DNA of 58,963 bases, filler included, from 4 parts of 4 records of this genome joined end to end with filler, not necessarily neighbours in it; one strand, 5' to 3'; numbered from the whole stretch's first letter, positions 11,818-31,378 are shown. Notes: a model not told the origin generated them from the letters alone. Made by a program: numbers and translations.

Positions 11818-11917
11818 NNNNNNNNNNNNNNNNNNNNNNNNNNNNNNNNNNNNNNNNNNNNTTAATTAATTAANNNNNNNNNNNNNNNNNNNNNNNNNNN
11901 NNNNNNNNNNNNNNNNN
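11818..11917. other. Artificial contig linker (44N-TTAATTAATTAA-44N)
   Basis: 100-bp spacer with stops in all six frames, identical at all three junctions. Confidence 0.97.
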
Positions 11918-13520: not shown

Positions 13521-14837
13521 TCAGTGCGCCATCAACCCGGGTAGCCAGGTGCCGATGGCAGGTTGCCAGACGATCAATGCCAATACCGCGAGCTTGATGA
13601 CAAGGAATGGCGTCACTGCCGCATATATATGCTTCATGCCGATACCCTCGGGGGCGACGCCACGCATCACGAACAACAGCAGGCCAAACGGCGGGGTCAG
13701 CAGTCCAATCTCCATAGTCAAGAGATAGACGACGCCGAGAACCAGCTCGTTGATGCCCAGTTGAGCCGCCAGCGGTACAAACACTGGTACCGTGACCATC
13801 AGCATCGATACCTGATCCACGAAACATCCCAGGAACAGCAGGATCAGGATCATGCCCACCAGCACCATCGTCGGGGTCGGGTCCACCGCATTGATTGCGG
13901 CAATCAGACCATTGGTGGCGCCACTGAACGACAGAACCTGCGCAAATGTCTGGCTGGCCGCCATGATGAAGAGGATCATCACCGAGAGTTTGACCGTTTC
14001 CATCAATGCCTTTGCGATCTTGCTCAGCGACAGGGCGCGGTAGGCGGCCCCGATCACAAGTGCTGCGAGACAGCCGAGAGCGGCGGATTCGGTCGGGGTG
14101 GCAAACCCCATCAGCAGGCTTCCGATCACCACTGCGAACAACACGGACAGTGGCGCGACGTAGATCATGAAGGGACGCCAGCGCTCTGCCAGTGTCATCT
14201 CAGGCAGATCATCCGGCGGGGCAACGCTGGGGTCCAGGATGCTGCGACCGATGATGTAGACGACAAAGGCACCGGCCAGCATCAGTGCAGGGATCACGCC
14301 GGCGATCAACAGGCCCGAGATGGAGATGCCCGCAAGGCTGCCGACCAGAACGGCCAGGGCTGACGGGGGGATCAGCATCGCGATCGCGCCCGAGGCCATG
14401 ATCGGCCCCATGGCCATCGTCGGATGGTAGCCGCGTTGCAGCATGCCCGGCATCAATGTGGAGCCCAGCATGGCCGTATTGGCGATGGTAGAGCCGGACA
14501 GAGCGGCAAAGATCGTGCCGCCAAAGACGGTGACCACCGATAGGCGGCCAGGCACCCGGGTCACCACGCGTTCGATCGCATCTATGGCCCGGTGGGCAAT
14601 GCCGGTCTGAAACAGAATTTCCCCCATCAGGATGAACAGGGGTATCGGGGCCATCTGAAAATTGGCCACCGACTGGGTGGAGTTTCGGGCCAGTTGCAGC
14701 AGCCCACGATCTCCGCCCAACACCTCGAACGCGCCGATCATGGTGACGGTGATAAAGGCAAAGGCGACCGGAAGGCCGATCAGCAGCAGGACCGCCAGCC
14801 CCCCCAACATCAGCGAAAGCGTGAGAATCCAATCCAT
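13521..14837 (-). CDS. dctM: TRAP transporter large permease
   Basis: Multipass protein with APIPLFILMGEIL, FAALSGS, LIPPS and EIGLLTPPFGLLLFV motifs; start MDWIL with AAGGA RBS. Confidence 0.93.
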   Translation of the reverse strand: MDWILTLSLMLGGLAVLLLIGLPVAFAFITVTMIGAFEVLGGDRGLLQLARNSTQSVANFQMAPIPLFILMGEILFQTGIAHRAIDAIERVVTRVPGRLSVVTVFGGTIFAALSGSTIANTAMLGSTLMPGMLQRGYHPTMAMGPIMASGAIAMLIPPSALAVLVGSLAGISISGLLIAGVIPALMLAGAFVVYIIGRSILDPSVAPPDDLPEMTLAERWRPFMIYVAPLSVLFAVVIGSLLMGFATPTESAALGCLAALVIGAAYRALSLSKIAKALMETVKLSVMILFIMAASQTFAQVLSFSGATNGLIAAINAVDPTPTMVLVGMILILLFLGCFVDQVSMLMVTVPVFVPLAAQLGINELVLGVVYLLTMEIGLLTPPFGLLLFVMRGVAPEGIGMKHIYAAVTPFLVIKLAVLALIVWQPAIGTWLPGLMAH

Positions 14838-14848
14838 GGGAATTCCTT

Positions 14849-15349
14849 TCAGAGGCCGGTCAGCGGCGCAGAGTCTTCGGAGGGGCGGAAGATTTTGCGC
14901 AGGAATTCGATCATGCACAGAAGCATCGACAGCGGCAGGACGGTCAGTGTCCACCATTCAGGAAAGGTGAACGCGGTGCGCACCATGGAGCCGCGCGCGT
15001 AGGATTGCATCAGGGCCTGCAGCCCAGCCCAGCCAAGCGCGGCACAGGTGATGGCCCCCAGCAGGCAGGTCAGGATTGCGGCGACGCGGGCCCCACGCGG
15101 TGGCAGCCCGCGGGTCACGAGGTCGACCTGTACATGGGCGTCCAATCGCAGCACCCAGGGTGCGCCCAGAAAGGCGATGGCCATCAAACCGTACTCGATG
15201 ACGTCAAGCGCGCCGTAGATCACCGGCAGGCCCAGGTTGCGCAGAAACACATTTAACGGGATCACCAGCGTGATCGCCGCAAGGATGGCGGCGGCGAGCA
15301 CGGCAAGGCCAGTGGTCAGCGCGCCGAAGCAGCGGTTGAAGTTCATCAT
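14849..15349 (-). CDS. dctQ: TRAP transporter small permease
   Basis: Four TM helices, FLGAPWVLRLDAHVQVDL motif, located between dctP and dctM. Confidence 0.9.
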   Translation of the reverse strand: MMNFNRCFGALTTGLAVLAAAILAAITLVIPLNVFLRNLGLPVIYGALDVIEYGLMAIAFLGAPWVLRLDAHVQVDLVTRGLPPRGARVAAILTCLLGAITCAALGWAGLQALMQSYARGSMVRTAFTFPEWWTLTVLPLSMLLCMIEFLRKIFRPSEDSAPLTGL

Positions 15350-15389
15350 GGGAACAACGGCGGAGCGACCAGAGGCCGCCCCAGCCACT

Positions 15390-16358
15390 TCACTTTGTCA
15401 GACAGGATTGCAGTTGCTGGCCAAGCTCAGCGTCGATCTCCATCACCTCGCCCCAGCCTTCGGATTGGGCGGTCTCAGCCCATAGCTCCTTGTCGGCGCC
15501 GTCAAAGGTGACGGTTTCAATGCCAGCTTCCGCCTGTGCTTCTGCTTCGGCCTGATTGCGCGCGATGTTTTCGGCGTTCTGCGTCTCGATCCAGGTGGCG
15601 GCCTGTTCCAGCAGCGCCTGTTGATCGGCGCTCAGGTCGTTCCAGCGATCCATGTTCACCAGGAAATTCACATCCACCTGATAAAAACCAGGGTCGACCC
15701 GGTAGGCTGTCTGCTCGTGCCAACCAAGATCAAGAACCCCCTGGCTGGGCCAGCCATAGCCATCAATCGCACCGCGTTCGAGGGCGGTGTAGACCTCGCC
15801 CGGAGCGGTGCGCACAAGGGTTGCCCCCAATTTTTCAAACATGGCGCGATAGACTGGCGTGGTGCGAATGGTCAGACCGGTCAGGTCCGGACCCTCCAGC
15901 GGTTTCGCCAGATATAGGTGATAGTTCATGTTGTCGCCCACGCGGGCGAGGTATTTCACATTCATCTGCTGCTGATGAATGCTGTCGATCAGCTCATAAC
16001 ACCCATTGGCGCGTTGGTCCTGAATGGTGTTTTGCGCCAGATGCAGCGCATCACCGGTGGGCAGCAGGTTGGGATAATAGGCGGTGGTGTTGTTCGCGAT
16101 ATCGACGATGCCAGCCTGAACCGCGTTGCCCAGTTCAAAGGGCGGCACCGCCTCGGGCCCGCCCAGCAGGTCGATCTGAACCAGACCTGTGCCGTTTTCA
16201 TTGACCCAGTCGACAAAGGCTTCGAAGTCGCGGGAGAAAGTTGTGCCGGTGGCAAAGGCCGTGACAGCCTTTAGCGTCACCTCTTCGGCTTGAACGCCGG
16301 CTGCGGTGAAGGTTGAGGCGCCAAAAAACGCGGCAGTGGCGAGTGAGCGGATGGTCAT
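15390..16358 (-). CDS. dctP: TRAP transporter substrate-binding protein
   Basis: Signal peptide MTIRSLATAAFFGAS..VQA; DLTGLTIR and GEVYTALERGAIDG motifs; GGGAGA RBS. Confidence 0.92.
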   Translation of the reverse strand: MTIRSLATAAFFGASTFTAAGVQAEEVTLKAVTAFATGTTFSRDFEAFVDWVNENGTGLVQIDLLGGPEAVPPFELGNAVQAGIVDIANNTTAYYPNLLPTGDALHLAQNTIQDQRANGCYELIDSIHQQQMNVKYLARVGDNMNYHLYLAKPLEGPDLTGLTIRTTPVYRAMFEKLGATLVRTAPGEVYTALERGAIDGYGWPSQGVLDLGWHEQTAYRVDPGFYQVDVNFLVNMDRWNDLSADQQALLEQAATWIETQNAENIARNQAEAEAQAEAGIETVTFDGADKELWAETAQSEGWGEVMEIDAELGQQLQSCLTK

Positions 16359-16436
16359 AGTCGGTCTCCCTGGGTGAGTGTGCTGGCGCGGAGCGGGCGC
16401 TTCTGAGCCTCTTGGTGTTCCGTATCCATATCGAAA

Positions 16437-16487
16437 AGCGTAGAGCCTCATTCTCAATTCTTCAAGCATGAAGCTTTAAGTCTGAAA
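16437..16487 (-). promoter_or_regulatory. Putative sigma70 promoter of the TRAP operon with overlapping operator palindromes
   Basis: -35 TTGAAG (16465-16460), 17-bp spacer, -10 TACGCT (16442-16437). Imperfect palindromes CTTCAAGCATGAAG (16460-16473) and CTTTAAGTCTGAAA (16474-16487). Confidence 0.55.
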
Positions 16488-16674
16488 TAAAAATGCGACG
16501 GATCTTGGGGTGTGGTGATTGTTGCAACCTCAATGCGCCAAGTCGCGCAAGAATGTGTATATTTCGCCCGCGCAGCGCACTAGCGCGACGGGGCGATATT
16601 TTGATTGTCTCCGTTGGTCCAAGCTGGATCTCGCTGCGCCAGCGCGGACTGTGGCGTTGTCTTGCGTTACATGG

Positions 16675-17541
16675 TCAGTCGAACCATCTGTCGTCCAGCT
16701 CTGGCAGTGGAATGGCATCGAGCAGCAGGCGCGTGATCTCGGATTGCGGGGCGGCAAAGACCTGCTCCACGGGGCCGTTTTCCAGAATTTCACCACGGTT
16801 CAATACAATGACATTGTCGCATAGGTGTCGGATCACGCTCAGGTCATGGCTGATGAAGGCGATGGTCAGGTTCATCTCCTGCGCCAGCGATTTGAGCAGC
16901 GACAGCACTTGCGCCTGGCTGGAGACATCAAGGCCCGAAACGATCTCGTCGGCCAGAATGAACTCCGGCTCTAGTGCGATCGCGCGGGCGATGCCGACGC
17001 GCTGGCGCTGCCCGCCGGAAAGCTCATGCGGATACCGCTCGCCAAAGCTGGGATCGAGGCCGACACGTTCCAGCGCCCGCAGGGCCTGATCCCGACGCGC
17101 TGCACTTGCGTTGCGGGTGGACGTGTCATTCGCGTAGCGCGCCAGTGGGGCTGCAACAATGCGCCAGATCTTGTGGCGCGGATTGAGGGACGACATCGGA
17201 TCCTGAAAGATCATCTGCAAGTTTCGCCGCAGGGGACGCAACGCCGCCTCGTCCAGCGTGGCGATATCTTGTCCATTGAGCAGAACCTGACCGGCATCCG
17301 GGCGCAGCAGACGCACCAGAACCCGCCCCAAGGTCGATTTGCCAGAGCCGCTCTCGCCAACGATGCCGGTGATCTGGCCCCGCGGCAGATCAAGGTCGAG
17401 ACCTTTCAGAACTTCGATCCGGGGTGCGGGGGCAAACAGCGGCTTATGGGCGGTATCGGGAAAGGACAGGCGCAGGGCGCGCACCGAAAACAACGCCGGA
17501 GCGGGAGCAGTCTGTGGGCAGATCAAGGGAGCGGCCATCAC
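16675..17541 (-). CDS. Peptide/nickel-type ABC transporter ATP-binding protein (DppF/OppF-like)
   Basis: Walker A GESGSGKS, QMIFQDP, signature LSGGQRQR, Walker B ILADE. Confidence 0.93.
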   Translation of the reverse strand: MMAAPLICPQTAPAPALFSVRALRLSFPDTAHKPLFAPAPRIEVLKGLDLDLPRGQITGIVGESGSGKSTLGRVLVRLLRPDAGQVLLNGQDIATLDEAALRPLRRNLQMIFQDPMSSLNPRHKIWRIVAAPLARYANDTSTRNASAARRDQALRALERVGLDPSFGERYPHELSGGQRQRVGIARAIALEPEFILADEIVSGLDVSSQAQVLSLLKSLAQEMNLTIAFISHDLSVIRHLCDNVIVLNRGEILENGPVEQVFAAPQSEITRLLLDAIPLPELDDRWFD

Positions 17542-18404
17542 CAGATCTCCTCCTGTGCGATCTTTGATTTCATCTGTGCGATCAGCTCGGGCGGCACCGG
17601 AGAGAAGCTGCGAGCGGGGTCGGCATAGCTGGGCGTGGCGGCAATCAGCGCGCGCGTATAGGGATGCGTCGGACTGGAGAAGATCGCCTCGGTGGTTGAA
17701 TCCTCCATGACGCGGCCTTGAAACAGCACGGATACTTTCTGGCTGATCTTGGCCACGACCCCCATGTCGTGGGTGACAAACAGCACTGCGGTGCCAACTT
17801 CCTTTTGCAACTCTCTGATAAGTTTCAGAATCTGCTTCTGTACGGTGACGTCCAGCGCAGTGGTCGGCTCGTCCGCCACAATCAGGGGCGGCGAGGGTGC
17901 AAAGGCTGCGGCGATCAGAATGCGTTGACGCATGCCGCCGGACAGTTCATGCGGGTAGCTGCGCATGACACGCGCCGGATCACGAATTTCGACCCGATCC
18001 AGCAATTCCAGTGCCCGCGTCTGCGCACGTTCAGCAGACCAGCCATGGATGCGGGTCAGCGGGTCGGTGATCTGCGGCGCGATCCGGCGTACCGGGTTTA
18101 GTGCGGTGAGCGGGTCCTGCGGGATCAGGGCGGCGCTCTGGGCAACGCAATGGCGTCTCTGGGCGGCGTTGAGATGATCCAGTGCCTGACCCCTGAGGAA
18201 TATCTGACCGCCGGTCACCCGCGTCGCCGGGGGCAGGGTGCCCAGAACGGCCTTGCCGATCATCGACTTGCCAGCGCCACTTTCTCCGACAAGCGCGCGC
18301 ACCTCTCCGGGCTCTAGCGTCAGGTTGACCTGTCTCAGAAGCGGTAAGCCGCTGCGCAGGGACACGGTCAGATTCTGGATGTTCAGCGTCGAGGACATGG
18401 TCAT
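17538..18404 (-). CDS. Peptide/nickel-type ABC transporter ATP-binding protein (DppD/OppD-like)
   Basis: GESGAGKS, YPHELSGGMRQR, DEPTTALDV, HPYTRALI. Confidence 0.93.
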   Translation of the reverse strand: MTMSSTLNIQNLTVSLRSGLPLLRQVNLTLEPGEVRALVGESGAGKSMIGKAVLGTLPPATRVTGGQIFLRGQALDHLNAAQRRHCVAQSAALIPQDPLTALNPVRRIAPQITDPLTRIHGWSAERAQTRALELLDRVEIRDPARVMRSYPHELSGGMRQRILIAAAFAPSPPLIVADEPTTALDVTVQKQILKLIRELQKEVGTAVLFVTHDMGVVAKISQKVSVLFQGRVMEDSTTEAIFSSPTHPYTRALIAATPSYADPARSFSPVPPELIAQMKSKIAQEEIW

Positions 18405-19267
18405 TGCAGCACCGGATCAAAGCGTTGTTTCAGCCCTTCGCCGAGCTGCGAGAAGCTCAGCACCGTAAGGAACAGGGCGATCAGCGGGAACAGCAGCACC
18501 CACCAGGCAAAGTGGATGGCGTTGCGTCCCTCGGCAATCATGCTGCCCCAGGTCGCCACATCCGACGACAGAGACAGGTTCACGAAGCTGAGGATCGCCT
18601 CGACGATCACCGCGATGCCCATCTCCAGCATCAGCAGGGCGACAATCGACGGCAGCACGTTTGGCAGGATTTCCGAAACCAGGGTGGTCAGTCGCCGGGC
18701 GCCGCCGATCTGGGCGCTGTCCACATAATCCATCTGCGCCTGCACCATTGTCTCGGCGCGGATCACGCGGGCAAAGCGGGTCCAGTCAATCAGGGCGATG
18801 GCCACGATGACCGAGGTCAGACCGGTGCCCATGACTGCCACCAGCAACACCGCGAACAGCACCGGAGGAAAGGCCATCCAGATCTCGATGAGGCGAGAGA
18901 TCACCCGGTCCCACCAGCCGCCGAAGTACCCGGCCAGCAACCCAAGGGTCGAGCCCACCAGACAGGTTGCCGTTGCCGCGATCAGGCTGACACACAGCGC
19001 GATGCGGGTGCCGTAGATGACCCGCGACAGAACATCCCGGCCCAGACTGTCGGTGCCGAGCCAATAGCCCGGTTCCGTGCCGGACATGAAGAACGGGGGA
19101 AGGCGTTCGAGGAACAGATCCTGATAAAGTGGATCATGAGGCGCGATCAGCGGTGCAAAGAGGGCCGCCAGACCCAGCGTGGTGATCCAGGCCAATGGCA
19201 ACCACAGACGCAGGTTGCGGCGCCCTGAGCGGGCACGGGGCGTGGTTTGCAGGGAGACATCAGCCAT
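18401..19267 (-). CDS. ABC transporter permease (DppC/OppC-like)
   Basis: WLGTDSLGRDVLSRVIYG motif, EAA-like loop, multiple TM helices. Confidence 0.93.
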   Translation of the reverse strand: MADVSLQTTPRARSGRRNLRLWLPLAWITTLGLAALFAPLIAPHDPLYQDLFLERLPPFFMSGTEPGYWLGTDSLGRDVLSRVIYGTRIALCVSLIAATATCLVGSTLGLLAGYFGGWWDRVISRLIEIWMAFPPVLFAVLLVAVMGTGLTSVIVAIALIDWTRFARVIRAETMVQAQMDYVDSAQIGGARRLTTLVSEILPNVLPSIVALLMLEMGIAVIVEAILSFVNLSLSSDVATWGSMIAEGRNAIHFAWWVLLFPLIALFLTVLSFSQLGEGLKQRFDPVLQ

Positions 19268-20270
19268 GACGCAACCTCGGGTTCAAAAGGGTGTAGGACA
19301 GATCCACTAGAAGGTTGATGGCCACAAACAGGGCGGCAAACAGCAGCACGATGCCTTGGATCAGCGGCAGATCACGATTGATAACCGCATCAATGGCCAT
19401 GTTCCCAAGGCCGCCGTAAGCAAAAAGGCGCTCCACGATCACCGTGCCACCGATGAGAAAGGTGAACTGCACCCCAACCAGCGTCAGCGTCGGCAGGGCG
19501 GCATTGCGCATGGCGTCCCGCAGGATCACTTGCGTTTCAGAGAACCCGCGCACCCGCGACAAGGTGGTGTAGTCTTGGATCAGAACCTCCTTGAGGTTCT
19601 GCTTCAGCAATTGTGCAATCAACGCCGCCAACGGCAACGCCAGCGACAGCGCCGGCATCAGCATATGTGAAAACGCGCTGCCTGCGACGTCGAAACGCCC
19701 CCGCAAAAGCCCTTCGATAGCCACGAAGTTGGTGAGGAAATCGAATTCCAGCCTCGGATCCAGACGCCCGGAAATAGACAGGACGGGCCAGAGCACACCA
19801 AACAGCAGGACAAACAGCAGCCCCCAGAGGAAATCGGGGATTGAGAGCACAGCGCCACTGGTCAGGTCGACAGCGGCCTCCGTCGGACTGCCCCGTCGAC
19901 GCGCCCCGATCACGGCAGCCACACCGCCGATGGCGACCGCGATCAGCAAGGCAAAGAATGACAGCTCAAGCGTCGCCGGAAGGCGGGCCAAGACCAGATC
20001 GGCGACCGGCTGGCGCAGGGTGATGGAGGTGCCGAAATCGCCCTGAACCACCCCGCCAATCCAGATGACGAACTGTTCGACCAGGCTCTTGTCGAACCCG
20101 TAGAGGGCCGTCAGCTGGGCGATGTCATCCTCGCTCGCACCCGGCGGCAGCATCATGGCGATCGGATTGCCTGGTGCCACTCGCACCAGAACAAAGACAA
20201 CAACCGCAACGCCGAACAGCGTGACGAGGGTCGTCAACAGACGGGACAGCACTGTCCTGAGAAACATCAA
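19260..20270 (-). CDS. ABC transporter permease (DppB/OppB-like)
   Basis: GDFGTS, RLPATLEL, GGTVIVERLF, RDLPLIQG, LLNPRLR. Confidence 0.93.
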   Translation of the reverse strand: MMFLRTVLSRLLTTLVTLFGVAVVVFVLVRVAPGNPIAMMLPPGASEDDIAQLTALYGFDKSLVEQFVIWIGGVVQGDFGTSITLRQPVADLVLARLPATLELSFFALLIAVAIGGVAAVIGARRRGSPTEAAVDLTSGAVLSIPDFLWGLLFVLLFGVLWPVLSISGRLDPRLEFDFLTNFVAIEGLLRGRFDVAGSAFSHMLMPALSLALPLAALIAQLLKQNLKEVLIQDYTTLSRVRGFSETQVILRDAMRNAALPTLTLVGVQFTFLIGGTVIVERLFAYGGLGNMAIDAVINRDLPLIQGIVLLFAALFVAINLLVDLSYTLLNPRLRHG

Positions 20271-20327
20271 AGGTACTCCGCTTCGATGCCGCCGACCGCA
20301 ACGGGCCGGCAGCAGGAGATTGACAGA

Positions 20328-21857
20328 TCAGACGGATGTCACGGCCTGGGGCAGCAGGTCGCCAGAGGTATAGGCCGCGACGTTCAGATCCGAGCGGTAG
20401 ACGATGGGCATCACATATTGCAGGAGCGGGATCACATAGCCCTCTTCAGCAATATAGCGGGACACGTCTTTGTAGCCCTGAATGCGCTTTTCTTCGTCGG
20501 CTTCCACGAACAGCGGGCCGATCTTTTCCACCAGATCCGGCGTGTCCCAGACCGCGTGTGGCGAGGGGCCGAACATCGAAAATCCCGTCGATGTCGACGG
20601 GTCACCGATCGAATTGCCCCAGTTGTAGAAGGCCGCAGGCGCCAGCTGGTCGGTGGCACGCAGCTCGTAGTGTTTGGCGATCTCGTAAACTTCGATTTCG
20701 GCTTCGATGCCGACACGACGCCACAGTCCGACGATGGCCTGCACCATTTCATAATCCTTGGGCTTAAAGCCCTTGGTCGTCTGAATGGTGAATTTGACCG
20801 GGTTGTCCGTGGAGTAGCCGGACTCTGCCAGCAACGCCTTGGCGCGCTCCGGGTCGTAAGGCACCGTGATGCTGTCGTCGAAGGCCGCATAGCCGGGCAC
20901 TTCGAGGGTGGAGAGCGGCACGCCATAGCCTTTCAGCAGCCGGTCGATAATCAGCTCCTTGTCGATGGCGTGATGGGCCGCGAGGCGTACATTCTTGTCG
21001 AGCATCGGCCCGATGTCGTTGAGGAAGATCATGCCGATATCGGTGATCGGAACCGCCTGACCGGACAGGCCGTCCTTGGCGATCAGGCGGTCGTAATCTT
21101 CGTAGGGCATATTGGTGGTAATATCCGCGTTGCCGGATTCCACCTCGGCCACGCGCGAGGTCGCATCGGTCACGAATTTGATCGTCACGGTGGAGAACTC
21201 CGGAGCCGCACCCCAATAGCCGTCGTAGGCTTTCAGGCGAACGTAGGCGCCGGGTTCGAATGTATCCACCATATAGGGGCCAGATCCGATCGGTGCTTTC
21301 TCAAACCCTTCGGAGCCGACGCTTTCGTAATAGTCCTTGGGCAGAACAAAGGCCGTCAGGAACGCCATCCATTTGAACAAGGCCGGTTCGAACTCGATCA
21401 CATCTGCGGTGATGCGCTGCCCATCGATCTGGAAATTGCCGATCTTGGACCAGACGAACTGCATCGGGTTTCCGGTTTCGGACTGGGCGGCACGGGTCAG
21501 CGACCAGACGATGTCATCCGGGGTCAGCGGATCCCCGTTCTGCCAGGTCACCCCTTCGCGGACGGTCATGTGGATCTGGGATTTGTCCTCGCTGAACCCC
21601 CAGTCGGTCAGCAGGCCAGCGTCAAAGCTGAGATCCGGGTTCTGGCCGACAAAGCGGTCGAACACCGCCAGGTAGATGGATTGCAACACCGGGTTGACCG
21701 CAGCCGGGCCGGTGGTCGGATCCCAGCTTTGCACAGGCACGTTATAGGCAATGGTCAGGTCGCCCCCGTTCTGGGCGATCACCGGCAGGCCCGAGGCCGC
21801 AAGAGCGGTGGCAAAGGCTGAGGTGCCTAGGAAACCACGACGGTTCATAGTGTTCAT
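20328..21857 (-). CDS. Family-5 ABC substrate-binding protein with Tat signal
   Basis: MNRRGFLG twin-arginine signal; REGVTWQNGDPLTPDDIVWS and PIGSGPY; AGGAGAG RBS. Confidence 0.92.
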   Translation of the reverse strand: MNTMNRRGFLGTSAFATALAASGLPVIAQNGGDLTIAYNVPVQSWDPTTGPAAVNPVLQSIYLAVFDRFVGQNPDLSFDAGLLTDWGFSEDKSQIHMTVREGVTWQNGDPLTPDDIVWSLTRAAQSETGNPMQFVWSKIGNFQIDGQRITADVIEFEPALFKWMAFLTAFVLPKDYYESVGSEGFEKAPIGSGPYMVDTFEPGAYVRLKAYDGYWGAAPEFSTVTIKFVTDATSRVAEVESGNADITTNMPYEDYDRLIAKDGLSGQAVPITDIGMIFLNDIGPMLDKNVRLAAHHAIDKELIIDRLLKGYGVPLSTLEVPGYAAFDDSITVPYDPERAKALLAESGYSTDNPVKFTIQTTKGFKPKDYEMVQAIVGLWRRVGIEAEIEVYEIAKHYELRATDQLAPAAFYNWGNSIGDPSTSTGFSMFGPSPHAVWDTPDLVEKIGPLFVEADEEKRIQGYKDVSRYIAEEGYVIPLLQYVMPIVYRSDLNVAAYTSGDLLPQAVTSV

Positions 21858-21943
21858 GTCTTCTCTCTCCTGTTGGCGGGCCTGTTTCGACCCAATTTAT
21901 TTTTTGTGTTTTGCCCATGCGGGCAGGGGCGACCGCAGGGCGG

Positions 21944-23485: not shown

Positions 23486-25038
23486 GCAGCGTCTCCGGCG
23501 AAGCTCTGGACCGTGGCCAGCGCGCCCTCCAGTTGCGCCCCGGACTCATCGGCCAAGGCGGCAGTGCGCAGTCGTCGCATCCAGTCCGCTGCGTCGGGCC
23601 GTCCCTGCAGAATGGGCAGCGCCTGCATGATGCGGGCGAATTTCGAATGGCCGCGCACATGTGTGTCTGAGTAGCCCTTGATCAGCCGGTAGTTGGCCAA
23701 AAGCTCCGTCGCCAGAGCACGGTCACGTTGGGCCACATCTGTCACCGTGGCAAACCACTGGTCGATATGGGCCATCTCTGTTTCATGCCGCAGCAAAGAC
23801 CGGCGCCAGGGCCGCAGCGCCGACACCGCCCAGAGCATCAGGAACCCACGCAGCCGGTCGGTTCGGATCCGGCGCCCCTTGTCTAGATAGCGCGCGTAGA
23901 AAGCTTCGAGACGGGATGAATTGCGCAGCCGTTTGCCAAGCCAGCCGGGCAGTGTCGTGGTGAATTCTTCAAAGCGCGGATGGAAATACTCGGTCACCAT
24001 CAACACCTGGTCATCACCCACCACGACCTCGTCGCGCACACGGGTCATCCGGCTGGCGCGAGTTTTGATGTCAGCGACGCGCAGAATGTCATCGTAGCAC
24101 AGCGCGCGGGCGCAGTATTTCGCCCCTGCAATGGTCATCTCGAACGGAGCGCTGTCCGTCACGGCCAGAGTTTCGACCATGTCCATATACTGCTCGCCGT
24201 AGGCAAGGTCCTGATAATCCACGACTTTGGTCAGCCCCAACCCTGTCATCTCTTGGGCCGCGGCGGGCAAGGCATTAAGGCGCGATTGCAATTGCGCCCA
24301 TTTGTCCTGATGGCGGGATGGCACATGCAGCGTTTCGATCTGCTTCGTTACCGCTTCGGGCTGTGGCGGTTGCTGTTTACCCGTGGCGCAGTCAAACGCA
24401 TCATTGAAAGCCCGCAGCGAGGCCTCGACGCCACGGCCTGAGGCGCGGATCACGTCCTCATAGCTCTCCTTGGGAAAGGGCAGGGCGCCAGATCCGGCCA
24501 GCCCGCCCAGCAGCGAGGACGAGATCATCGACCCGGCAGATTTTGCAAGCGCCTCCATGTCGAAGGCCACCGTATGATCGGCGGCAATGCCCATGGCTTC
24601 GATCACCTTTTGACCATCGGCACGCCCATCTCCGGGAACCGTTTTTTCCGCAACCGCAGGAATGCGATGGGTCGAAGCGATCAGGGTGGTGCGCCCCGGC
24701 GTCACAAAGCCACGCATGATCGCGCGGCCCCCTTCCATCAGTTCGGATGCGATCAGGATGTCGACGTCCCCTTCGGCGGGCGACAGGGCAAAGACCGGCA
24801 TACGGCCGGTGTCGCGACACATTTCGACATAGTAGATCGTGGCCCCCGTGCGCTGGGCCACACCGGCGACCGAGGTGGATTGCGCACGATAGCCATTGGC
24901 CTCGGCGACGGCGGTGATCCAGTTGGTCAGGACGCCACCGCCCTGGCCCCCAACGGCAAGTGCGGCCAGCGTGATGATCTTTTCACCTTCTGCGCTGGGC
25001 GAACGGCGGGCGGCAATCGAGGTGTTTTGAATGTTCAT
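23482..25038 (-). CDS. iorB: Indolepyruvate:ferredoxin oxidoreductase-family beta subunit (long form)
   Basis: AVGGQGGGVL, TSVAGVAQRTGAT, C-terminal extension RLIKGYSDTHVRG; start MNIQN with AAGGA RBS. Confidence 0.88.
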   Translation of the reverse strand: MNIQNTSIAARRSPSAEGEKIITLAALAVGGQGGGVLTNWITAVAEANGYRAQSTSVAGVAQRTGATIYYVEMCRDTGRMPVFALSPAEGDVDILIASELMEGGRAIMRGFVTPGRTTLIASTHRIPAVAEKTVPGDGRADGQKVIEAMGIAADHTVAFDMEALAKSAGSMISSSLLGGLAGSGALPFPKESYEDVIRASGRGVEASLRAFNDAFDCATGKQQPPQPEAVTKQIETLHVPSRHQDKWAQLQSRLNALPAAAQEMTGLGLTKVVDYQDLAYGEQYMDMVETLAVTDSAPFEMTIAGAKYCARALCYDDILRVADIKTRASRMTRVRDEVVVGDDQVLMVTEYFHPRFEEFTTTLPGWLGKRLRNSSRLEAFYARYLDKGRRIRTDRLRGFLMLWAVSALRPWRRSLLRHETEMAHIDQWFATVTDVAQRDRALATELLANYRLIKGYSDTHVRGHSKFARIMQALPILQGRPDAADWMRRLRTAALADESGAQLEGALATVQSFAGDAA

Positions 25039-25051
25039 GTCGTCAATTCCT

Positions 25052-27196
25052 TCAGGCGAAAACCACGCGTTTCGCGTCACGCCTGCGTTGTAGCCAATCG
25101 ATAATCTTCTGGGTCCTGCGCGCCTTGCGGCCTTCGCGCGGGGTGGGGTTTGATACGATATCGGCCTGATAGAAACTCGGGCAGAGCACGGCGGCATCGG
25201 CGACCTCGCCGCAATTGCCGCATCCGACGCAGGTCTGGTCGATGGCTGCGACCGGATCATCGCGCAGCGGATCGCCGGTATCCTTGACCGACAGGGACGG
25301 GCAGCCCGAAAGCCGCATGCAGGCGTGATCGCCGGTGCAGATGTCCTCATCGACGCCGAAACGTGGCCGCACGGTGCGCTTGCCTTCCTTGGTGGCCTTG
25401 GCCAGCAGTGGTTTCTCCCGGCGCTGTCGGTTCAGCATGCATTCTGAGGAGGCGACGATGACCTTCGGGCCTGCAACCTGTGTTGTCAGCGCCTCTTTCA
25501 GCGTGTCGCGGACCTTGGTGACGTCATAGGTTCTGTCGATCTGGCGGATCCATTTGACGCCCATGCCCTGGCAGGCCTCGACGATGGAGTTCTGCGTCTG
25601 CTTGGTCTTGTTGTCTGCGCGGGATGACAGAATGTCCTGCCCGCCGGTCGCCGCCGCATAAAAATTGTCGACGATCACGATCACATTGTCGGACTTGTTG
25701 AAGACGGCATTGCCCACCGACGACGTCAGACCATTGTGCCAGAACCCGCCATCCCCGACGAAAGAGATCGAGCGGCGGCCATGCGGGTCTTCGTTGTGAA
25801 ACGCCGCAGCCGAGGCCGGACCCAGACCATACCCCATCGTTGTTGCGCCAAGATCGAAGGGCGGCATGATCGAAAACAGATGGCAGCCGATGTCCGATGA
25901 AATGTGGTGCTCACCCAGTTCTTGCTCGACCAGTTTTGTCGCTGCAAAGATCGGCCGCTCCGGGCAGCCGGTGCAGAACCCGGGCGGGCGTGCCGGCAGA
26001 ACGTCGGACAGATCCGGGATCGGCGCCGGTGCTTCATTCTTGGTGACCGCGGCGGCTGGCATCAGGCCCGGCGCATATGCCGTCAGAAACTCCCCAAGCC
26101 CGTGCAGCATCACCTGTCCGGTATATTCGCCCCCCATCGGCAGCATGCCCTTGCCCTCAAGCGTGACGCGCTTGCCGGCCTTGTAGAGCATATGCCCGAT
26201 CTGCTGTTCGATGTAGTTGGGCTGGCCCTCCTCGACGATCAGAACGGCCTCCTTGTCCTCGCAAAAGTCGAGGATCTGGCTTTCGACCAGCGGGTAGACA
26301 CAGTTGAGGCAGAGAATATCAAGATCGGTATCGCCATAAAGATCGGCAAGCCCAAGACGGTTCAGCGCGCGGATCACCGTGTTGTAGGTCCCGCCCTGAA
26401 TGATCAGACCGACCTTTCCAGATGGCTGCCCGAACCGCTCGTTCAGGCCGCGTTCCAGAATGAAGCGTTCAGCCGCGGGTTTGCGTTTGGTCAGCTTCTC
26501 CGCCTCATGGAGATAGGTGGCAGGGGGCAGGACGATCCGCTCAAGATCCCGGCGGGGGCTTTCCAGAGCCTGGCTCACTGTCATGTCGGGGCGGCGATTG
26601 TCGGAGGCGGCGAAAGAGCCGTGCACATGGCAGGAGCGGATGCCCATCTGCAGCATAACCGGCGTGTTGCTGGCCTCCGACAGCTCAAAACCATCCCCAA
26701 CTGCGGCGACGATCGAGGGCAGGTTGGGGCGCGGGTCCAGCATCCAGACCTGGCTTTTCATGGCAAAGGCATAGGTGCGCTCCTGCATGATCGAAGAGCC
26801 TTCGCCGTAGTCTTCGCCGACGATGATGAGCGCGCCGCCGGTTACGCCGCCCGAGGCCAGATTGGACAGCGCATCGGAGGCGACATTGGTCCCGACAACG
26901 GATTTATAGGTGACCGCTCCGCGGATGGGGTAATGAACGGATGCCGCCAGCATCGCCGTTGCGGTGGCCTCGCTTGCGGAGGCTTCAAACCGGACGCCCA
27001 GCTCTCCGAGGATCTCCTGCGCATCTGCAAGAACATCCATCAGATGCGAAATCGGCGAGCCCTGATAGCCCCCGACATATCCAACGCCATTTTCCAGCAG
27101 CGCCTTGGTGATGGCGAGGATCCCTTCGCCCGAGAAGGTCTCTCCATCTCCCTGTTTCAGTTTTTGGACTTCCTTGGCAAAGGAACGTTCAGCCAT
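25052..27196 (-). CDS. iorA: Indolepyruvate:ferredoxin oxidoreductase-family alpha subunit
   Basis: GYQGSPIS, PPGFCTGCPERP, SDIGCH, TPP motif GDGGFWHNG, two C-terminal 4Fe-4S motifs (CTGDHAC..GCP, CVGCGNC..CP); start MAERSF with AAGGAG RBS. Confidence 0.92.
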   Translation of the reverse strand: MAERSFAKEVQKLKQGDGETFSGEGILAITKALLENGVGYVGGYQGSPISHLMDVLADAQEILGELGVRFEASASEATATAMLAASVHYPIRGAVTYKSVVGTNVASDALSNLASGGVTGGALIIVGEDYGEGSSIMQERTYAFAMKSQVWMLDPRPNLPSIVAAVGDGFELSEASNTPVMLQMGIRSCHVHGSFAASDNRRPDMTVSQALESPRRDLERIVLPPATYLHEAEKLTKRKPAAERFILERGLNERFGQPSGKVGLIIQGGTYNTVIRALNRLGLADLYGDTDLDILCLNCVYPLVESQILDFCEDKEAVLIVEEGQPNYIEQQIGHMLYKAGKRVTLEGKGMLPMGGEYTGQVMLHGLGEFLTAYAPGLMPAAAVTKNEAPAPIPDLSDVLPARPPGFCTGCPERPIFAATKLVEQELGEHHISSDIGCHLFSIMPPFDLGATTMGYGLGPASAAAFHNEDPHGRRSISFVGDGGFWHNGLTSSVGNAVFNKSDNVIVIVDNFYAAATGGQDILSSRADNKTKQTQNSIVEACQGMGVKWIRQIDRTYDVTKVRDTLKEALTTQVAGPKVIVASSECMLNRQRREKPLLAKATKEGKRTVRPRFGVDEDICTGDHACMRLSGCPSLSVKDTGDPLRDDPVAAIDQTCVGCGNCGEVADAAVLCPSFYQADIVSNPTPREGRKARRTQKIIDWLQRRRDAKRVVFA

Positions 27197-27340
27197 GGGT
27201 GGTCTCCTTGGGTCGTACCGACCGACATCTGAAGGGGACGACGCGCTGTCGCAGTGCCTCCATGTCGGAAAACTTGGCCACATGCGCGATGCAGGTGGCA
27301 TGGATCCGCCCCTTATGGGGACAGGGCCGCGGGGGGCCTT

Positions 27341-27787
27341 TTAAAAATCGTGCTGGCGGATGTTGTAGAACACGCGCAGCAGCAGATCGTTCATCATCTT
27401 TCTGTCGTCTGGGGAGAGCGCGGACAGCATGACCTCCTGCATCTGCAGCATGGCCGGCCAGGCGGTTTCGTGGACGTGCCGCCCCGTGTCTGTCAGCTGG
27501 ATGTGGCGGATGCGGCTGTCTTTGCTGTCGGCCTCGCGCCGGATCAGCCCGGCTGTTTCCATCGTGTCCAGCGTGCGTGATAGCGTTGATTGCTTGATCA
27601 CCGTCAGCACGGAGAGTGTATTGATGGTGCAGGGGCCGCTCTCGGTCAGCACCGCCAGCGCGCGCATCTGCGCCACCGTGATCCCAACCTCCTTCAGGGC
27701 CTCTTCAACACCCTTGTTGTAGCGCGCCATGATGCGGTTCATCAGATAGGGGGTGAACTCCTCCAGATGATCGGGGCCGGTGGTCAT
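27341..27787 (-). CDS. MarR-family transcriptional regulator
   Basis: PYLMNRIMARYN, KQSTLSRTLDTME..GLIRR, DSRIRHIQLTDTG; ATGA overlap with the upstream gene's stop. Confidence 0.92.
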   Translation of the reverse strand: MTTGPDHLEEFTPYLMNRIMARYNKGVEEALKEVGITVAQMRALAVLTESGPCTINTLSVLTVIKQSTLSRTLDTMETAGLIRREADSKDSRIRHIQLTDTGRHVHETAWPAMLQMQEVMLSALSPDDRKMMNDLLLRVFYNIRQHDF

Positions 27788-29355
27788 GCGCCAAGCTCCT
27801 TCGCCACGAGATAGCCCGAGCCACCTGACAGACCGGGGCCCGGATGGGTCGAGGCCCCGATGTGATAGAGGCCCTTTACCCCGGTGGTGTGCCGTTTGCT
27901 GTCCGTAAATGGGCGCCAGAGAAAGAACTGCTCCAGCGAGCAGGCGCCGCCATAGGGGTCGCCGCCCACAAGGTTGGCATTCATGCCAGCCAGATCTGCA
28001 GGTGATATGGCTCGTCGTGTCACGACCTTGGAGGCAAAGCCATCGATATGGCTGGCCAGGATTTGCTCGACACGGTCTGCAAATGCCTCGCGCAGCTCCA
28101 GCGTCCAGCTGCCGTCCTCGGGAACGGAGATTTCGCCCTTGGCATCGCCTTTGACGTGACGCGGGGCCTCTGGCATCTGCAGCCAAAGAACGGATTTTCC
28201 GTCCGGCGCGCGTGTCGGGTCTGCGGCACAGGGTTGGCCGACGCAGATTGTCGGCACCTCCGGCAGCAGCCCGCGCTCTGCCTCATTCCCGGCCTTGGAG
28301 ACCCCGTCCAATCCCGGTGTCAGATGCAACAGCTGCACGGTCTCAACACCCGGCGTGCGCCAGGTCACCGGCCCATCGAGGACGTAGTGCAGCTGGAAGT
28401 TTCCCTTGCCGTAACGATAGCGGCGCAGGTCATCCGCTTTGCTCTCTGTTTCCAGCAGCGTGCCGTAGAGCTGATGCGGCGTGACCGAGGCCAGTACGGA
28501 GGGCGCGGCGATATACTCCGCGTCAGCGAGGGTAACGCCGGTGACCGCCCCGCCGGCCTGTTCAATCCGGCTGACGTCGGCGTTGGTGCGCACCGTCCCG
28601 CCGTGTTCCTCGATGATCGCGCACAGGCCCTGCACCATGGACGCGATGCCGCCCTTGGCGATCGGCGCACCGGCGGCTTCGAGGGCAAAACCGATGATCT
28701 GTCCCATCTGCCCGGAAAAGGCAGCTTCCGGCCCGAGACCCGCATGCAGGCACCACGGCGCCCAGAGCGCCTGAGACAGTTCGGACTGGAATGAGGTTTC
28801 CAGCCAGCCCCGCATCGAGGTCAGCGATTCCCCCATGGTCGCGGCAAGCCCGTGGGGGCCACGTTTCCAGGCCTCCTTGCCGAGCAGCTTGGCAGTCGCG
28901 CGGGACCATGGATCGCCGCCCATCAGTCCGAACAGCAGATCAGCCTTGCCGCCGAACGCGTCCAGATCGGCAGAAAGCTGGTCGCCATCGCCCGCCGCTG
29001 CCGCGTTGAAGGCCGCAACATTGGCGGCACGATCCATCTGGTAGACCAGCGCCTGACCGTCGGGCAGGAGCACGCCAGTGGGCGTCTGGGTGGCGCAGAA
29101 TTCGACGCCGTGACGGGTCAGGTCGTCGCCAAGGGCGGCATGGGCAGCTCCGGTCACCCACAGGACCAATGTGGTCGCCAAAGGGTCATGGAGCACCCCG
29201 TCGCCAAGCGGTTCGGTGCGCATGCAGCCACCTGCCACGGATTCACGTTCCAACAGCACCACGCGCTTTCCCGCCTTGGCCAGCAGGGCGCCGGAGGTCA
29301 GCGCGTTGATGCCTGAACCTATGATGGCAACGTCGAATTCGGTGGCAGATGACAT
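27784..29355 (-). CDS. Phytoene-desaturase-family (COG1233) FAD oxidoreductase, copy 1
   Basis: IIGSGINAL dinucleotide fold; C-terminal TGVKGLYHIGASTHPGPGLSGGSG; clear paralogue of 21944-23485. Confidence 0.88.
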   Translation of the reverse strand: MSSATEFDVAIIGSGINALTSGALLAKAGKRVVLLERESVAGGCMRTEPLGDGVLHDPLATTLVLWVTGAAHAALGDDLTRHGVEFCATQTPTGVLLPDGQALVYQMDRAANVAAFNAAAAGDGDQLSADLDAFGGKADLLFGLMGGDPWSRATAKLLGKEAWKRGPHGLAATMGESLTSMRGWLETSFQSELSQALWAPWCLHAGLGPEAAFSGQMGQIIGFALEAAGAPIAKGGIASMVQGLCAIIEEHGGTVRTNADVSRIEQAGGAVTGVTLADAEYIAAPSVLASVTPHQLYGTLLETESKADDLRRYRYGKGNFQLHYVLDGPVTWRTPGVETVQLLHLTPGLDGVSKAGNEAERGLLPEVPTICVGQPCAADPTRAPDGKSVLWLQMPEAPRHVKGDAKGEISVPEDGSWTLELREAFADRVEQILASHIDGFASKVVTRRAISPADLAGMNANLVGGDPYGGACSLEQFFLWRPFTDSKRHTTGVKGLYHIGASTHPGPGLSGGSGYLVAKELGA

Positions 29356-29359
29356 AGCT

Positions 29360-30151
29360 TTAGGCCCCTGGAACCAGTGCGAGAACGCGCACCGGAGATC
29401 CTGTTCCGTTGACGATCTTCAGCGGCGCAGTGACCACGATCGCGCCTTTGGCGGGCAGCTCCTTGAGATTGGTCAGCGAGGCCAGACCATAGCGGTTTGC
29501 CTTGTGCAGTAGGTTATGGGCCGGGAAAGGCAGTTCAAAACTGGCCGCGAGTCCGGCGTCGGTCCCAATGCACTGAGACCCCCAACCAAGCGCATTTTTC
29601 TCCATCAGGTATTCGATGCAGTCTGCCGAGGGGCCGGGGGTGTGAGGGCCGTTCTCATCGGTGTTGAGAAACTTGTCCTCGTCGTGGTTGTACTGATCCC
29701 AGTCGGTGCGCATCAGGACCCATTCGCCGGCCTTGATCTCTCCGTGCTCGGCTTCCCAGTCCTGCACGCCCTGTTTGGTCAGCAGGAAATCATTGTCTTC
29801 GGCGGCCTGCGCCGAACAGTCGATGACATTTGCAGGGGCCATGAATTTTTGCGGATCGATCGTGTCCACGGACCCATCTGGATAGTCCTTGCCGGTGACC
29901 CAGTGGTGCGGCGCATCGTAATGCGTGCCCGAATGCTCACCAAGCTTGAGCCAGTTCCAGGCCCAGAACGGACCACGGTCGCCGTATCTCGAAATCTGAT
30001 GAATTTCGATCTGGGGCGTGTCGTCTGCGATCTCGGGCGGTAGCTTCAAAAGCGGGGTGTCCGGTCCCAACGGGGCGGAGCAATCGACGACCCTGATCCC
30101 CCCATCCAGAAGTCCCGAGGCAAGTGCGGCAAGCGTGTCTGTTTGGTTCAT
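29360..30151 (-). CDS. Cyclase-family metallohydrolase, isatin hydrolase-like
   Basis: Metal motif EHSGTHYDAPHHW (HxGTHxDxPxH). GPFWAWNW, GWGSQCIGTDAG, FPAHNLLH and GTGSPVRVLAL closely match my recollection of Labrenzia aggregata isatin hydrolase. Start MNQTD with GAGG RBS. Confidence 0.85.
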   Translation of the reverse strand: MNQTDTLAALASGLLDGGIRVVDCSAPLGPDTPLLKLPPEIADDTPQIEIHQISRYGDRGPFWAWNWLKLGEHSGTHYDAPHHWVTGKDYPDGSVDTIDPQKFMAPANVIDCSAQAAEDNDFLLTKQGVQDWEAEHGEIKAGEWVLMRTDWDQYNHDEDKFLNTDENGPHTPGPSADCIEYLMEKNALGWGSQCIGTDAGLAASFELPFPAHNLLHKANRYGLASLTNLKELPAKGAIVVTAPLKIVNGTGSPVRVLALVPGA

Positions 30152-30185
30152 TGACCTCATCCCTGTTGTTGTTCTCGCTTGGTAT

Positions 30186-30243
30186 ATATGCAGGTGGATA
30201 TTTCTCATTGTTTCAAGTATAAAGTTTCTATTCGCAGCGAATA
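30186..30243. promoter_or_regulatory. Operator-like palindromes upstream of the catabolic operon
   Basis: ATATGCA-gg-TGGATAT (30186-30201), TTTCAAGTATAAAG (30211-30224) and the perfect 7-1-7 palindrome TATTCGC-a-GCGAATA (30229-30243), in an AT-rich patch. Confidence 0.5.
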
Positions 30244-30505
30244 TTTTTCTGGACGCTGGTTTTTGGGCGAATTTTCAGGGGCTTTGTCGGGAGGGTGCCT
30301 GTTTTCTCTGCGCTGCAGCATCGACGAGCAGGCGTCGAGGCGTCGCGAATCCCACCGCGTCGGCATCTCGCACGGGCCCGCAGCGCGCCGAAATGCAGAT
30401 TTTTACTTTAGGTTCGAAGTAATTCAGTTAGAGCCAGATCCGCAGGTAAGCACACATGCCCGAGGCACGACCGGTTGTTCCTGCGTGTAATGCAAGGAGA
30501 CTGTT

Positions 30506-30570
30506 CATCTCGTCTGAGTGCAGAGATCATCCGCATCTCTGCATCTCCGCCTGTCTGATATGACGAGATG
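30506..30570 (-). terminator. Nested stem-loop immediately 3' of marR
   Basis: CATCTCGTC (30506-30514) pairs with GACGAGATG (30562-30570); TGCAGAGAT (30519-30527) pairs with ATCTCTGCA (30535-30543). No U-tract. Confidence 0.4.
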
Positions 30571-31047
30571 TCAGGTGCCGGACGATCTGTCAGGCTTTTG
30601 TCGGATATCCAGCATCACGGATATCGCCCGTGCAACATCCGGCTCTGAGACATTTGACATCAGGGAGTCGATCCAGGCTAGGTGTTCGCGCACCATCTGA
30701 TCCATCTTCTCGCGGCCCTCCGATGTGACGGAAACGACAAATGCTCGGCGGTCGTGCGGCGAGGGGGCCCGTTGCACCAGACCATCCTTGGCAAGCCGAT
30801 CCACAACACCAGTCACATTGCCGTTGGAGACCACTAGGTGCTGGGACAACTCGCTCATCTTCATGCCGTCAGGTGCGGCATGGAGGGCGGCCAGAACGTC
30901 AAACCGGGACAGGGTCATGTTGTGCCCCTCGCGCAGTCGTTCGCGCAGGACACCTTCGACGTGGCGCACTGATTTCAACATCTGCAGCCACAGTCTCAGC
31001 CGCTGACGGGCCATCGGTTCGTCTTCGAACAGAAGCTCCTCGGCCAT
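30571..31047 (-). CDS. MarR-family transcriptional regulator (RLRLWL.. subfamily)
   Basis: RLRLWLQML, TLSRFDVLAAL, MSELSQHLVVSNGNVTGVVDRL, DRRAFVVSVT; start MAEEL with GGAG/GAGG RBS (upstream ATG at 31098 also possible). Confidence 0.92.
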   Translation of the reverse strand: MAEELLFEDEPMARQRLRLWLQMLKSVRHVEGVLRERLREGHNMTLSRFDVLAALHAAPDGMKMSELSQHLVVSNGNVTGVVDRLAKDGLVQRAPSPHDRRAFVVSVTSEGREKMDQMVREHLAWIDSLMSNVSEPDVARAISVMLDIRQKPDRSSGT

Positions 31048-31220
31048 CCTCGGCTCCATTTCTGCTGGTTCGGCTTTCTCTACAGGCCCGACCTCCATGA
31101 TGGCAAGCCGATCTGGCGCTTGTCGGCCAGATGCCTGCCTTGCAAGGGAAGCATAGCGACCCGCCCGCAGCCCATTGTGCTGTCGAAACAGGCGTCAACT
31201 ACAGCGCCCTCATGGCCCTT

Positions 31221-31278: not shown

Positions 31279-31378
31279 NNNNNNNNNNNNNNNNNNNNNN
31301 NNNNNNNNNNNNNNNNNNNNNNTTAATTAATTAANNNNNNNNNNNNNNNNNNNNNNNNNNNNNNNNNNNNNNNNNNNN
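31279..31378. other. Artificial contig linker
   Basis: 44N-TTAATTAATTAA-44N. Confidence 0.97.

Follow-up and report, generated by a model that had tools for sequence, protein, structure and literature searches.

The described systems closest to the locus reported here are the iad locus, the iif operon and the 2-aminobenzoyl-coenzyme A (CoA) pathway, abm. In the iad locus of Variovorax, iadA and iadB correspond to iorA and iorB, iadI encodes a cyclase and iadR a MarR regulator (PMC12852158, Table 2). Dioxindole, isatin, isatinate and anthranilate have been reported as intermediates, and iorA/B have been named as markers of iad-like loci (PMC9613470). In the iif operon (ind, ipo/dho), IifB makes 3-hydroxyindolin-2-one (dioxindole) and IifA turns dioxindole into anthranilate (PMC6221969, PMC12538310), a canonical route straight to anthranilate that is described as bypassing isatin (PMC6221969). 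The same 2018 review lists the status of isatin as a real intermediate of indole degradation as open, because the iif cluster contains no gene that makes or uses isatin, and the genes for an isatin/anthranilate route are unassigned in the strain of another study (PMC8383072). The subject of this analysis is a cassette of 15 genes at positions 13521-31059 of a DNA stretch of 58,963 nucleotides (the window), which contains a cyclase resembling isatin hydrolases, IorAB and two flavoproteins of the COG1233 family, here called A and B. We consider it probable, though well short of certain, that the cassette acts as a catabolic funnel in which oxidised indoles are imported, dioxindole is converted to isatin by A, isatin is opened, and isatinate is converted to 2-aminobenzoyl-CoA by IorAB. 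The new part would be the flavoprotein pair, which adds one well-motivated candidate enzyme step to a known pathway.

All 15 genes are located on the minus strand, contain no internal stop codon, and are arranged in the order marR2, cyclase, COG1233-A, marR1, iorA, iorB, COG1233-B, oppABCDF and dctPQM, which confirms the co-orientation and the overlapping start and stop codons noted in the first-pass annotation. Five junctions overlap, by 4 bp at A/marR1, iorB/B, oppC/oppD and oppD/oppF and by 8 bp at oppB/oppC. Intergenic gaps of 419, 144 and 316 bp precede the cyclase, iorA and dctP, respectively, and thus leave space for internal promoters. The first-pass annotation regarded the locus as an undescribed system. 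This does not hold for the locus as a whole: the lower half (IorAB, cyclase and MarR) is an already known module, since the published iad locus has iorA/iorB, the cyclase and the MarR gene as iadA/B, iadI and iadR. The full-text literature covered, which left out most subscription papers and supplements, contains no description of COG1233 proteins in indole or isatin catabolism.

Flavoprotein A (27784-29355, 523 amino acids) is a predicted dioxindole dehydrogenase. CrtO is the best NCBIfam match of both A and B, but the scores are far below the cut-offs, both for CrtO (130 bits for A and 152 bits for B versus 1000) and for the CrtI family (110 and 135 versus 238). The AlphaFold model of A (pLDDT 90.6) has a CrtI/amine-oxidase fold, and a Foldseek search with this model retrieved 4REP and 4DGK as the best matches (16-17% identity), followed by nicotine and amine oxidases, with no more than 18% identity to any of the PDB structure matches listed. 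The fold would fit a flavin dehydrogenase and names no substrate. In the ESM Atlas, the clusters of these flavoproteins are named PYROXD2-like or phytoene desaturase family. The resemblance to the CrtI/CrtO desaturases and ketolases and the PYROXD2-like COG1233 proteins lies in the fold and the FAD-binding motifs, but no carotenoid gene is present among the cassette neighbours identified. A role in carotenoid biosynthesis was rejected on the basis of the scores below all Crt cut-offs and the 16-17% identity to Crt structures.

The gene neighbourhoods of A in other genomes suggest a substrate. In Azospirillum, Ralstonia and Pseudaminobacter, A, under an AraC regulator, belongs to or immediately follows iifBCD(E) and stands downstream of IifCD and IifB. 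In Tsukamurella and Tropicimonas, its partners are IifB and a flavin monooxygenase (FMO), again under an AraC regulator. The Tsukamurella locus encodes a complete route with A only, consisting of a short-chain dehydrogenase/reductase, the FMO, A, IorAB, the cyclase, AbmA and a CoA ligase. Among 86 loci collected by iifC alone (79 metagenome loci and seven from 401 Pseudomonadota genomes), 37 contain iifA, 20 contain A and none contains both, while two contain B and the cyclase. A search of 50 A-bearing genomes identified iifA in just one. The 20 A-bearing loci include 12 with the cyclase and seven with iorA. Since A stands in iif operons that lack the dioxindole-consuming IifA, it is likely to be a dehydrogenase that converts dioxindole to isatin. 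The window contig itself contains no iif gene (iifCD, iifB or iifA). The first-pass annotation placed the two COG1233 genes in the position of the upper oxygenases, which needs correction: in relatives, A takes a place next to IifB and the indole oxygenase in loci that lack IifA, and since A likely acts after the upper oxygenases, it would be no substitute for them. An earlier view of the Tsukamurella locus as containing two tandem COG1233 genes was wrong, as the first gene encodes the FMO. A class B FMO replaces IifCD beside IifB and AraC in Tsukamurella and Tropicimonas (L103:10424-11995, L019:6276-7808).

To study the conservation of the cassette, GTDB genomes were scanned with an alignment of A, and the best 80 of 592 confirmed matches were analysed; these 80 loci are not independent, because 38 of them are from Mesorhizobium. 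Within 10 kb and at a sequence identity of at least 35%, iorA is present in 71 loci, marR1 in 70, the cyclase and iorB in 68 each, B in 66, oppA in 61, abmA in 42 and iifC in six. A protein of the VOC/glyoxalase family that seems to have a signal peptide accompanies 40 of the loci (for example L006:8305-8904) but is not found in the window. The five core enzymes (hydrolase, IorA, IorB, A and B) occur together in 63 of the 80 loci; 62 of the loci are 20 kb or longer, and 58 of these have all five. The association of the core genes is far above chance, and the gene-neighbourhood search thus bears out the conserved combination of a cyclase, iorAB and two COG1233 genes that had been proposed from the window. 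There are two gene orders, the single run seen in the window and a divergent order in which B and the ABC transporter genes are on the other strand. The cassette is found in many marine and root bacteria, and its relatives span Actinomycetota as well as Alpha- and Betaproteobacteria. When Alphaproteobacteria were sampled evenly, with only four candidates scored per genome, the A/B pair was present in three of 301 genomes, the centre of the sample included.

The cyclase (29360-30151, 263 amino acids) is likely to be an isatin hydrolase B-type enzyme that opens isatin. Its best PDB match is isatin hydrolase B (IHB) of Labrenzia aggregata (4J0N; E 2.5e-119), to which it aligns without gaps at residues 4-263, and the next matches are RsIHA and LaIHA (1e-84 to 1e-85). 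A metal motif, a catalytic triad, an aromatic pocket motif and a GLAS motif form the signature that separates isatin hydrolases from kynurenine formamidase, according to the part of PMC6117287 that was available. All are present in the cyclase, as the motif for Mn binding, HxG[T/A]HxDxPxH (H73, H77, D79 and H83), the Asp-His-His triad (D198, H212 and H83), the pocket motif WxW/FxW (W63-A-W65) and the GLAS/GLQC signature (G222-L-A-S225, not the I(L/I)E of KynB). The window enzyme differs from IHB in the pocket, which is F-x-W in IHB but W-A-W in the cyclase. Its score to the KynB model TIGR03035 is 24 bits, versus a cut-off of 223. For isatin hydrolase homologues, a Km of 10-16 µM for isatin has been reported, and Mn-dependent hydrolysis has been shown in vitro for close homologues.

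IorA (25052-27196, 714 amino acids) is the IadA-like alpha subunit of an IorA-like thiamine pyrophosphate/4Fe-4S 2-oxoacid:ferredoxin oxidoreductase with TPP_enzyme_C and Fer4 domains, and IorB (23482-25038, 518 amino acids) is the beta subunit, with POR and DUF6537 domains. They show 70% and 51% identity, respectively, to IorA and IorB of an iad-type locus in Azospirillum. Both score below the equivalogs of the archaeal-type indolepyruvate oxidoreductases, TIGR03336 and TIGR03334 (291 versus 651 and 45 versus 206 bits), and IorB passes only the subfamily model NF006179 (660 bits, cut-off 348). The cassette shares with the iad locus of Variovorax and Bradyrhizobium the gene order MarR-iorA-iorB, with the marker genes iadA/iadB beside a MarR gene, the cyclase, and the intermediates isatin, isatinate and anthranilate. 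However, it lacks iadCDE, iadF, iadG, iadH and iadJ, and it contains two COG1233 genes and an Opp-type ABC transporter instead of IadK2. Its cyclase is of the IHB type, whereas the cyclases of the iad loci read are paralogues with 45-48% identity to it. The iadDE Rieske oxygenase, which is necessary and sufficient for the attack on indole-3-acetic acid (IAA), is absent from the contig. The refined iad pathway, as given in the available part of a preprint, names no dioxindole dehydrogenase (PMC12633357).

The cassette is also linked to the abm pathway, through the presence of AbmA in its vicinity (42 of the 80 loci) and through MarR2, which is an orthologue of the abm-linked MarR. The cassette itself contains no abm enzymes; the closest genome carries them at another site, in an abm cluster that includes a CoA ligase (L236). 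Genes annotated as "bifunctional salicylyl-CoA 5-hydroxylase/oxidoreductase" were taken to encode AbmA. The hydrolase signature and the proximity of AbmA support the route from isatin through isatinate to anthraniloyl-CoA that was suggested from the window. MarR2 (30571-31059; Pfam MarR) shows 72% identity to a MarR that Alloyangia encodes next to its abm genes, and a sister locus (L011) has the order abmA-ridA-marR2-cyclase. The marR2 gene is thus likely a remnant of an anthraniloyl-CoA (abm) module.

MarR1 (27341-27787) is encoded directly upstream of iorA, in the position that iadR has relative to iadA, and its best PDB matches are 3CJN (5e-32) and 7KYM (1e-21). The residues F11, Y14, N17, N24 and R42 are invariant in all 70 orthologues and common to the MarR of an iad-type locus. 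Four of the seven IAA-contact positions match 7KYM, which is B. japonicum IadR only by inference. The ligand of MarR1 is likely indolic. Among 34 regions that precede the cyclase in related loci, 22 contain a strict TGCA-NN-TGCA site, as compared to 3-5 for the best dyad in 30 shuffles, and MarR1 likely represses via this site. The window copy, TCCA-CC-TGCA (30189-30198, minus strand), is a degenerate candidate operator with one mismatch about 40 bp upstream of the cyclase, and is outside the 22 strict regions.

Flavoprotein B (21944-23485, 513 amino acids) shows 33% identity to A. In a tree of 99 rows inferred with a quick method (36 loci, almost all from Mesorhizobium, were omitted), A and B form two clades with a support of 100 and largely mirrored branching. 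They have 75 nearly invariant positions in common and 17 clade-conserved differences. B mostly adjoins oppA. Among 50 A-bearing genomes it was identified in 43, in two of these as pieces. It also stands without A beside a luciferase-like monooxygenase (LLM), a gene that it often adjoins (L097, L099, L199/L200). Because B adjoins oppA and also stands without A beside the LLM gene, it likely serves a second entry route and would act on a second imported oxindole-type compound, with the other dioxindole enantiomer and oxindole as the foremost candidates. PDB sequence searches with A, B, OppA and the LLM revealed no close characterised relative. The RutA/SfnG-like LLM, often accompanied by a flavin reductase, is repeatedly encoded next to iif genes, B and IorAB (L097:4585-5685, L199:18600-19900, L185, L216), and the family adjoins iif genes or the cassette in several other genomes. 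It is a candidate new indole-derivative oxygenase.

No gene for a Rieske oxygenase, a monooxygenase or a molybdoenzyme is present among the 17 contig proteins scanned, as the first-pass annotation had stated. This includes the families of the IacA flavin monooxygenase and the Iaa molybdoenzyme, for which the closest genome was not searched. A survey of 50 genomes out of the 80 loci identified iifC in 14, matches to an IadD query in 21, some of which are paralogues with 36-46% identity, and the LLM in 31, of which 13 at 68-79%. In ten iad-type loci from A-bearing genomes (L225-L234), iorA/B is missing from the 15-20 kb read, which would fit a role of the cassette as the lower half for those regions. 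In the type genome of Tritonibacter scottomollicae, the closest relative, iifC, FMO, LLM, IadD and iifA were not found with the queries used, and its two Rieske alpha subunits show 24-26% identity to the IadD query. The possibility that the upper pathway is merely cut off by the contig end was rejected for this strain, since its cassette flanks hold other genes. Because the closest genome yielded no oxygenase of the iif, iad, FMO or LLM type with these queries, this copy of the cassette likely scavenges indoles that are already oxidised. Natural sources of such compounds include plant oxindole and dioxindole, and bacterial isatin. Neighbouring nitrilase-family genes were not used as a sign of indole-3-acetonitrile, because loci that lack COG1233 genes also have them, together with genes for cupin, FAH and Asp/Glu racemase proteins.

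In the proposed mechanism, the Opp-type ABC transporter would take up oxidised indoles, as its co-inheritance with B suggests, and the FAD-dependent A would oxidise dioxindole to isatin, in line with its place in iif operons. B would oxidise a second imported substrate, with the two compounds named above as leading candidates, into the same isatin pool, and this is the weakest step. The Mn-dependent hydrolase would then convert isatin to isatinate, as indicated by its motifs and by the in vitro activity of close homologues. IorAB would convert isatinate and CoA to 2-aminobenzoyl-CoA and CO2, as suggested by the chemistry of the family and the link to AbmA, which has its gene at another place in the genome and would dearomatise the CoA ester. 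In other genomes, the upper modules that plug into the cassette would be iifBCD, FMO and IifB, the LLM monooxygenase, or iadCDE.

Several observations weigh against this mechanism. The Fisher p value for the mutual exclusion of iifA and A (2.7e-6) greatly overstates it, because the iifA/A label changes only twice on the IifC tree (68 labelled loci, namely 57 of the 86 and 11 earlier loci), and the iifC query favoured Ralstonia-like loci. Independent support for the exclusion consists of two A lineages and two FMO-type loci. Among the 86 iifC loci, 27 lack A, B and iifA, although many of those are incomplete, and a cyclase is missing from the stretch read in eight of the 20 iif loci with A. One of the 50 A-bearing genomes contains iifA. 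The fold search found no small-molecule dehydrogenase close to A, and B-like genes are also present without isatin genes. Of the seven residues in Variovorax IadR that contact IAA, only Arg46 has an identical counterpart in MarR1 (with an inferred register). Finally, IorAB is not needed for the formation of free anthranilate in Variovorax, since the iadC-K2 region without iadA/B fully restored anthranilate, according to the available part of the preprint (PMC12633357).

A specific version of the funnel can be envisaged on the basis of CrtO, which converts CH2 to C=O. B and A would then act in series and without oxygen, B hydroxylating C3 of oxindole with water and A converting the dioxindole to isatin, which would make the cassette a self-sufficient oxindole pathway. 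CrtO is indeed the best family match of both proteins, albeit far under the cut-off, the queries used revealed no upstream oxygenase in the closest genome, and xanthine-dehydrogenase-family genes, whose products may make oxindole from indole, adjoin the pair in L006 and L025. Under denitrifying conditions, moreover, oxindole, dioxindole, isatin and anthranilate have been reported as intermediates (PMC6221969). Yet B often adjoins the LLM gene, which suggests an oxygenase before B, and molybdoenzymes are neighbours in only one of the 80 GTDB loci and one plasmid locus, so that we consider the series rather unlikely. The order of the steps could also be the reverse, with the cyclase opening dioxindole to 2-aminomandelate and A and B acting as enantiomer-specific 2-hydroxyacid dehydrogenases that yield isatinate. 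C8H7NO2 accumulates in Variovorax upon deletion of iadI (the cyclase), for which the authors of the preprint suggest a broad amidase (PMC12633357), a charged acid would suit import by ABC and TRAP transporters, and some A-bearing iif loci lack the cyclase. However, the cyclases of the iad loci read are paralogues of the window enzyme, and the latter contains the GLAS and aromatic pocket motifs of isatin hydrolases, whose homologues have a micromolar Km for isatin. This order is therefore unlikely.

A non-indole or substituted lactam, such as halogenated or hydroxylated oxindoles or benzoxazinone-type compounds, is a decidedly unlikely alternative substrate, with isatin as merely one of those accepted. 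A B-like gene (46%) and a cyclase stand with LigB-family ring-cleavage dioxygenase genes in Novosphingobium (L100), and the transporter has no characterised close relative, both of which would fit such a substrate. Against it, the linkage of A to iif genes recurs in several classes, and the cassette is associated with AbmA as well as, at one locus, with tryptophan dioxygenase and kynureninase. The mirrored trees and the frequent presence of B in A-bearing genomes would also be expected if A and B formed one heterodimeric enzyme. But the two genes are mostly not adjacent, A is alone in complete-looking operons (L003, L007, L103), and B is alone in L097-L099, which makes a heterodimer highly improbable.

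The preferred reading, in which A provides isatin to the hydrolase and IorAB, would make A a concrete candidate enzyme, by which an isatin branch could be recognised in genomes of Actinomycetota and of Alpha- and Betaproteobacteria. If it is correct, many "phytoene desaturase" annotations would refer to indole-catabolic genes, and Mesorhizobium and roseobacters could clear oxidised auxin and indole products without the known upper oxygenases; screens keyed on iadDE/iacCD would overlook such bacteria. A more far-reaching idea, which we put forward only tentatively as a doubtful but conceivable case, is that A and B represent a new class of oxindole-oxidising flavoenzymes that convert oxindole through dioxindole to isatin without O2, as parts of a mobile isatin funnel. 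The missing enzymes of the oxindole-dioxindole-isatin route would then have been found, roseobacters and rhizobia would scavenge oxidised indole and auxin products of their hosts and neighbours, and a non-carotenoid COG1233/PYROXD2-like branch would gain a small-molecule substrate.

The transport genes follow B in the cassette. The family-5 ABC solute-binding protein (OppA-like, SBP_bac_5; 20328-21857) has an RR leader and no close solved relative. The Opp-type ABC permeases and ATPases, identified with Pfam and NCBIfam, are located at 16675-20267 (oppB 19260-20267, oppC 18401-19267, oppD 17538-18404 and oppF 16675-17541). An accessory TRAP transporter, identified with Pfam, is located at 13521-16358 (dctP 15390-16358, dctQ 14849-15349 and dctM 13521-14837). 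The TRAP genes are present at 99% in the T. scottomollicae type strain, and related TRAP genes are located beside the loci L001, L022 and L131, while none follows oppF in L209 and L211. The count of three TRAP-bearing loci among the 80 was not used, because the TRAP genes lie beyond the 10-kb flank in this gene order.

The window consists of four contigs joined end to end by N44-TTAATTAATTAA-N44 linkers at positions 11818-11917, 31279-31378 and 49562-49661, presumably the product of a pseudo-chromosome builder. The first two of these linkers delimit the bacterial contig to 11918-31278 (19.4 kb). The flanking contigs are gene-poor, with few long open reading frames (ORFs), and are unrelated to the bacterial contig; six of the seven long ORFs scanned outside it have no Pfam match above the cut-off. 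The bacterial contig is likely a contaminant of a non-bacterial assembly. A horizontal transfer of the cassette into a eukaryote was rejected, since artificial linkers bound the contig. The suggested link to a protist host is unsupported, as the type strain carries the cassette in other genomic surroundings and Mesorhizobium accounts for 38 of the 80 related loci.

The segment 13466-31157 (17.7 kb, no strand assigned) shows 97.7% nucleotide identity to a contig of T. scottomollicae DSM 25328, the type strain, and flavoprotein A is 99% identical to a protein of this species. The match breaks off at both ends of the operon, and the flanks differ. In the window, a fragment of an IS91-family transposase (12175-12495, minus strand; Y2_Tnp, partial NF033538), which matches plasmid IS91 genes, adjoins the cassette. 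The type strain has a luxI-like gene, a histidine kinase gene and hemA on one side, as read from translations, and DUF2147/Mre11-like genes on the other. Because the IS91 fragment adjoins the cassette while other genes stand there in the type strain, the cassette is likely movable, and the host species of the contig is not established as T. scottomollicae. The luxI-like gene directly adjoins the type-strain cassette (L009:7490-8125, read from translation). A 93-amino-acid ORF between the IS91 fragment and the cassette (12686-12967, plus strand) has no Pfam or NCBIfam match.

Some further loci contain related genes in other settings. On a Novosphingobium humi plasmid (L100), the B-like flavoprotein and the cyclase are encoded beside two LigB-family dioxygenase pairs, which we take to be 2-aminophenol dioxygenases, and an aldehyde dehydrogenase, and this locus may point to a benzoxazinone or aminophenol route. 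Distant COG1233 genes on plasmids of actinobacteria are accompanied by TetR and SMR efflux genes (L102:11980-19300, L104:11992-14874). An iorA-like gene is present beside an amidohydrolase gene in an IS1071-flanked segment of a plasmid from linuron-contaminated soil (L111:13871-19101). Two tandem copies of iifC are present in most of the iifA-type loci L106, L158, L174-L179, L186, L189 and L190.

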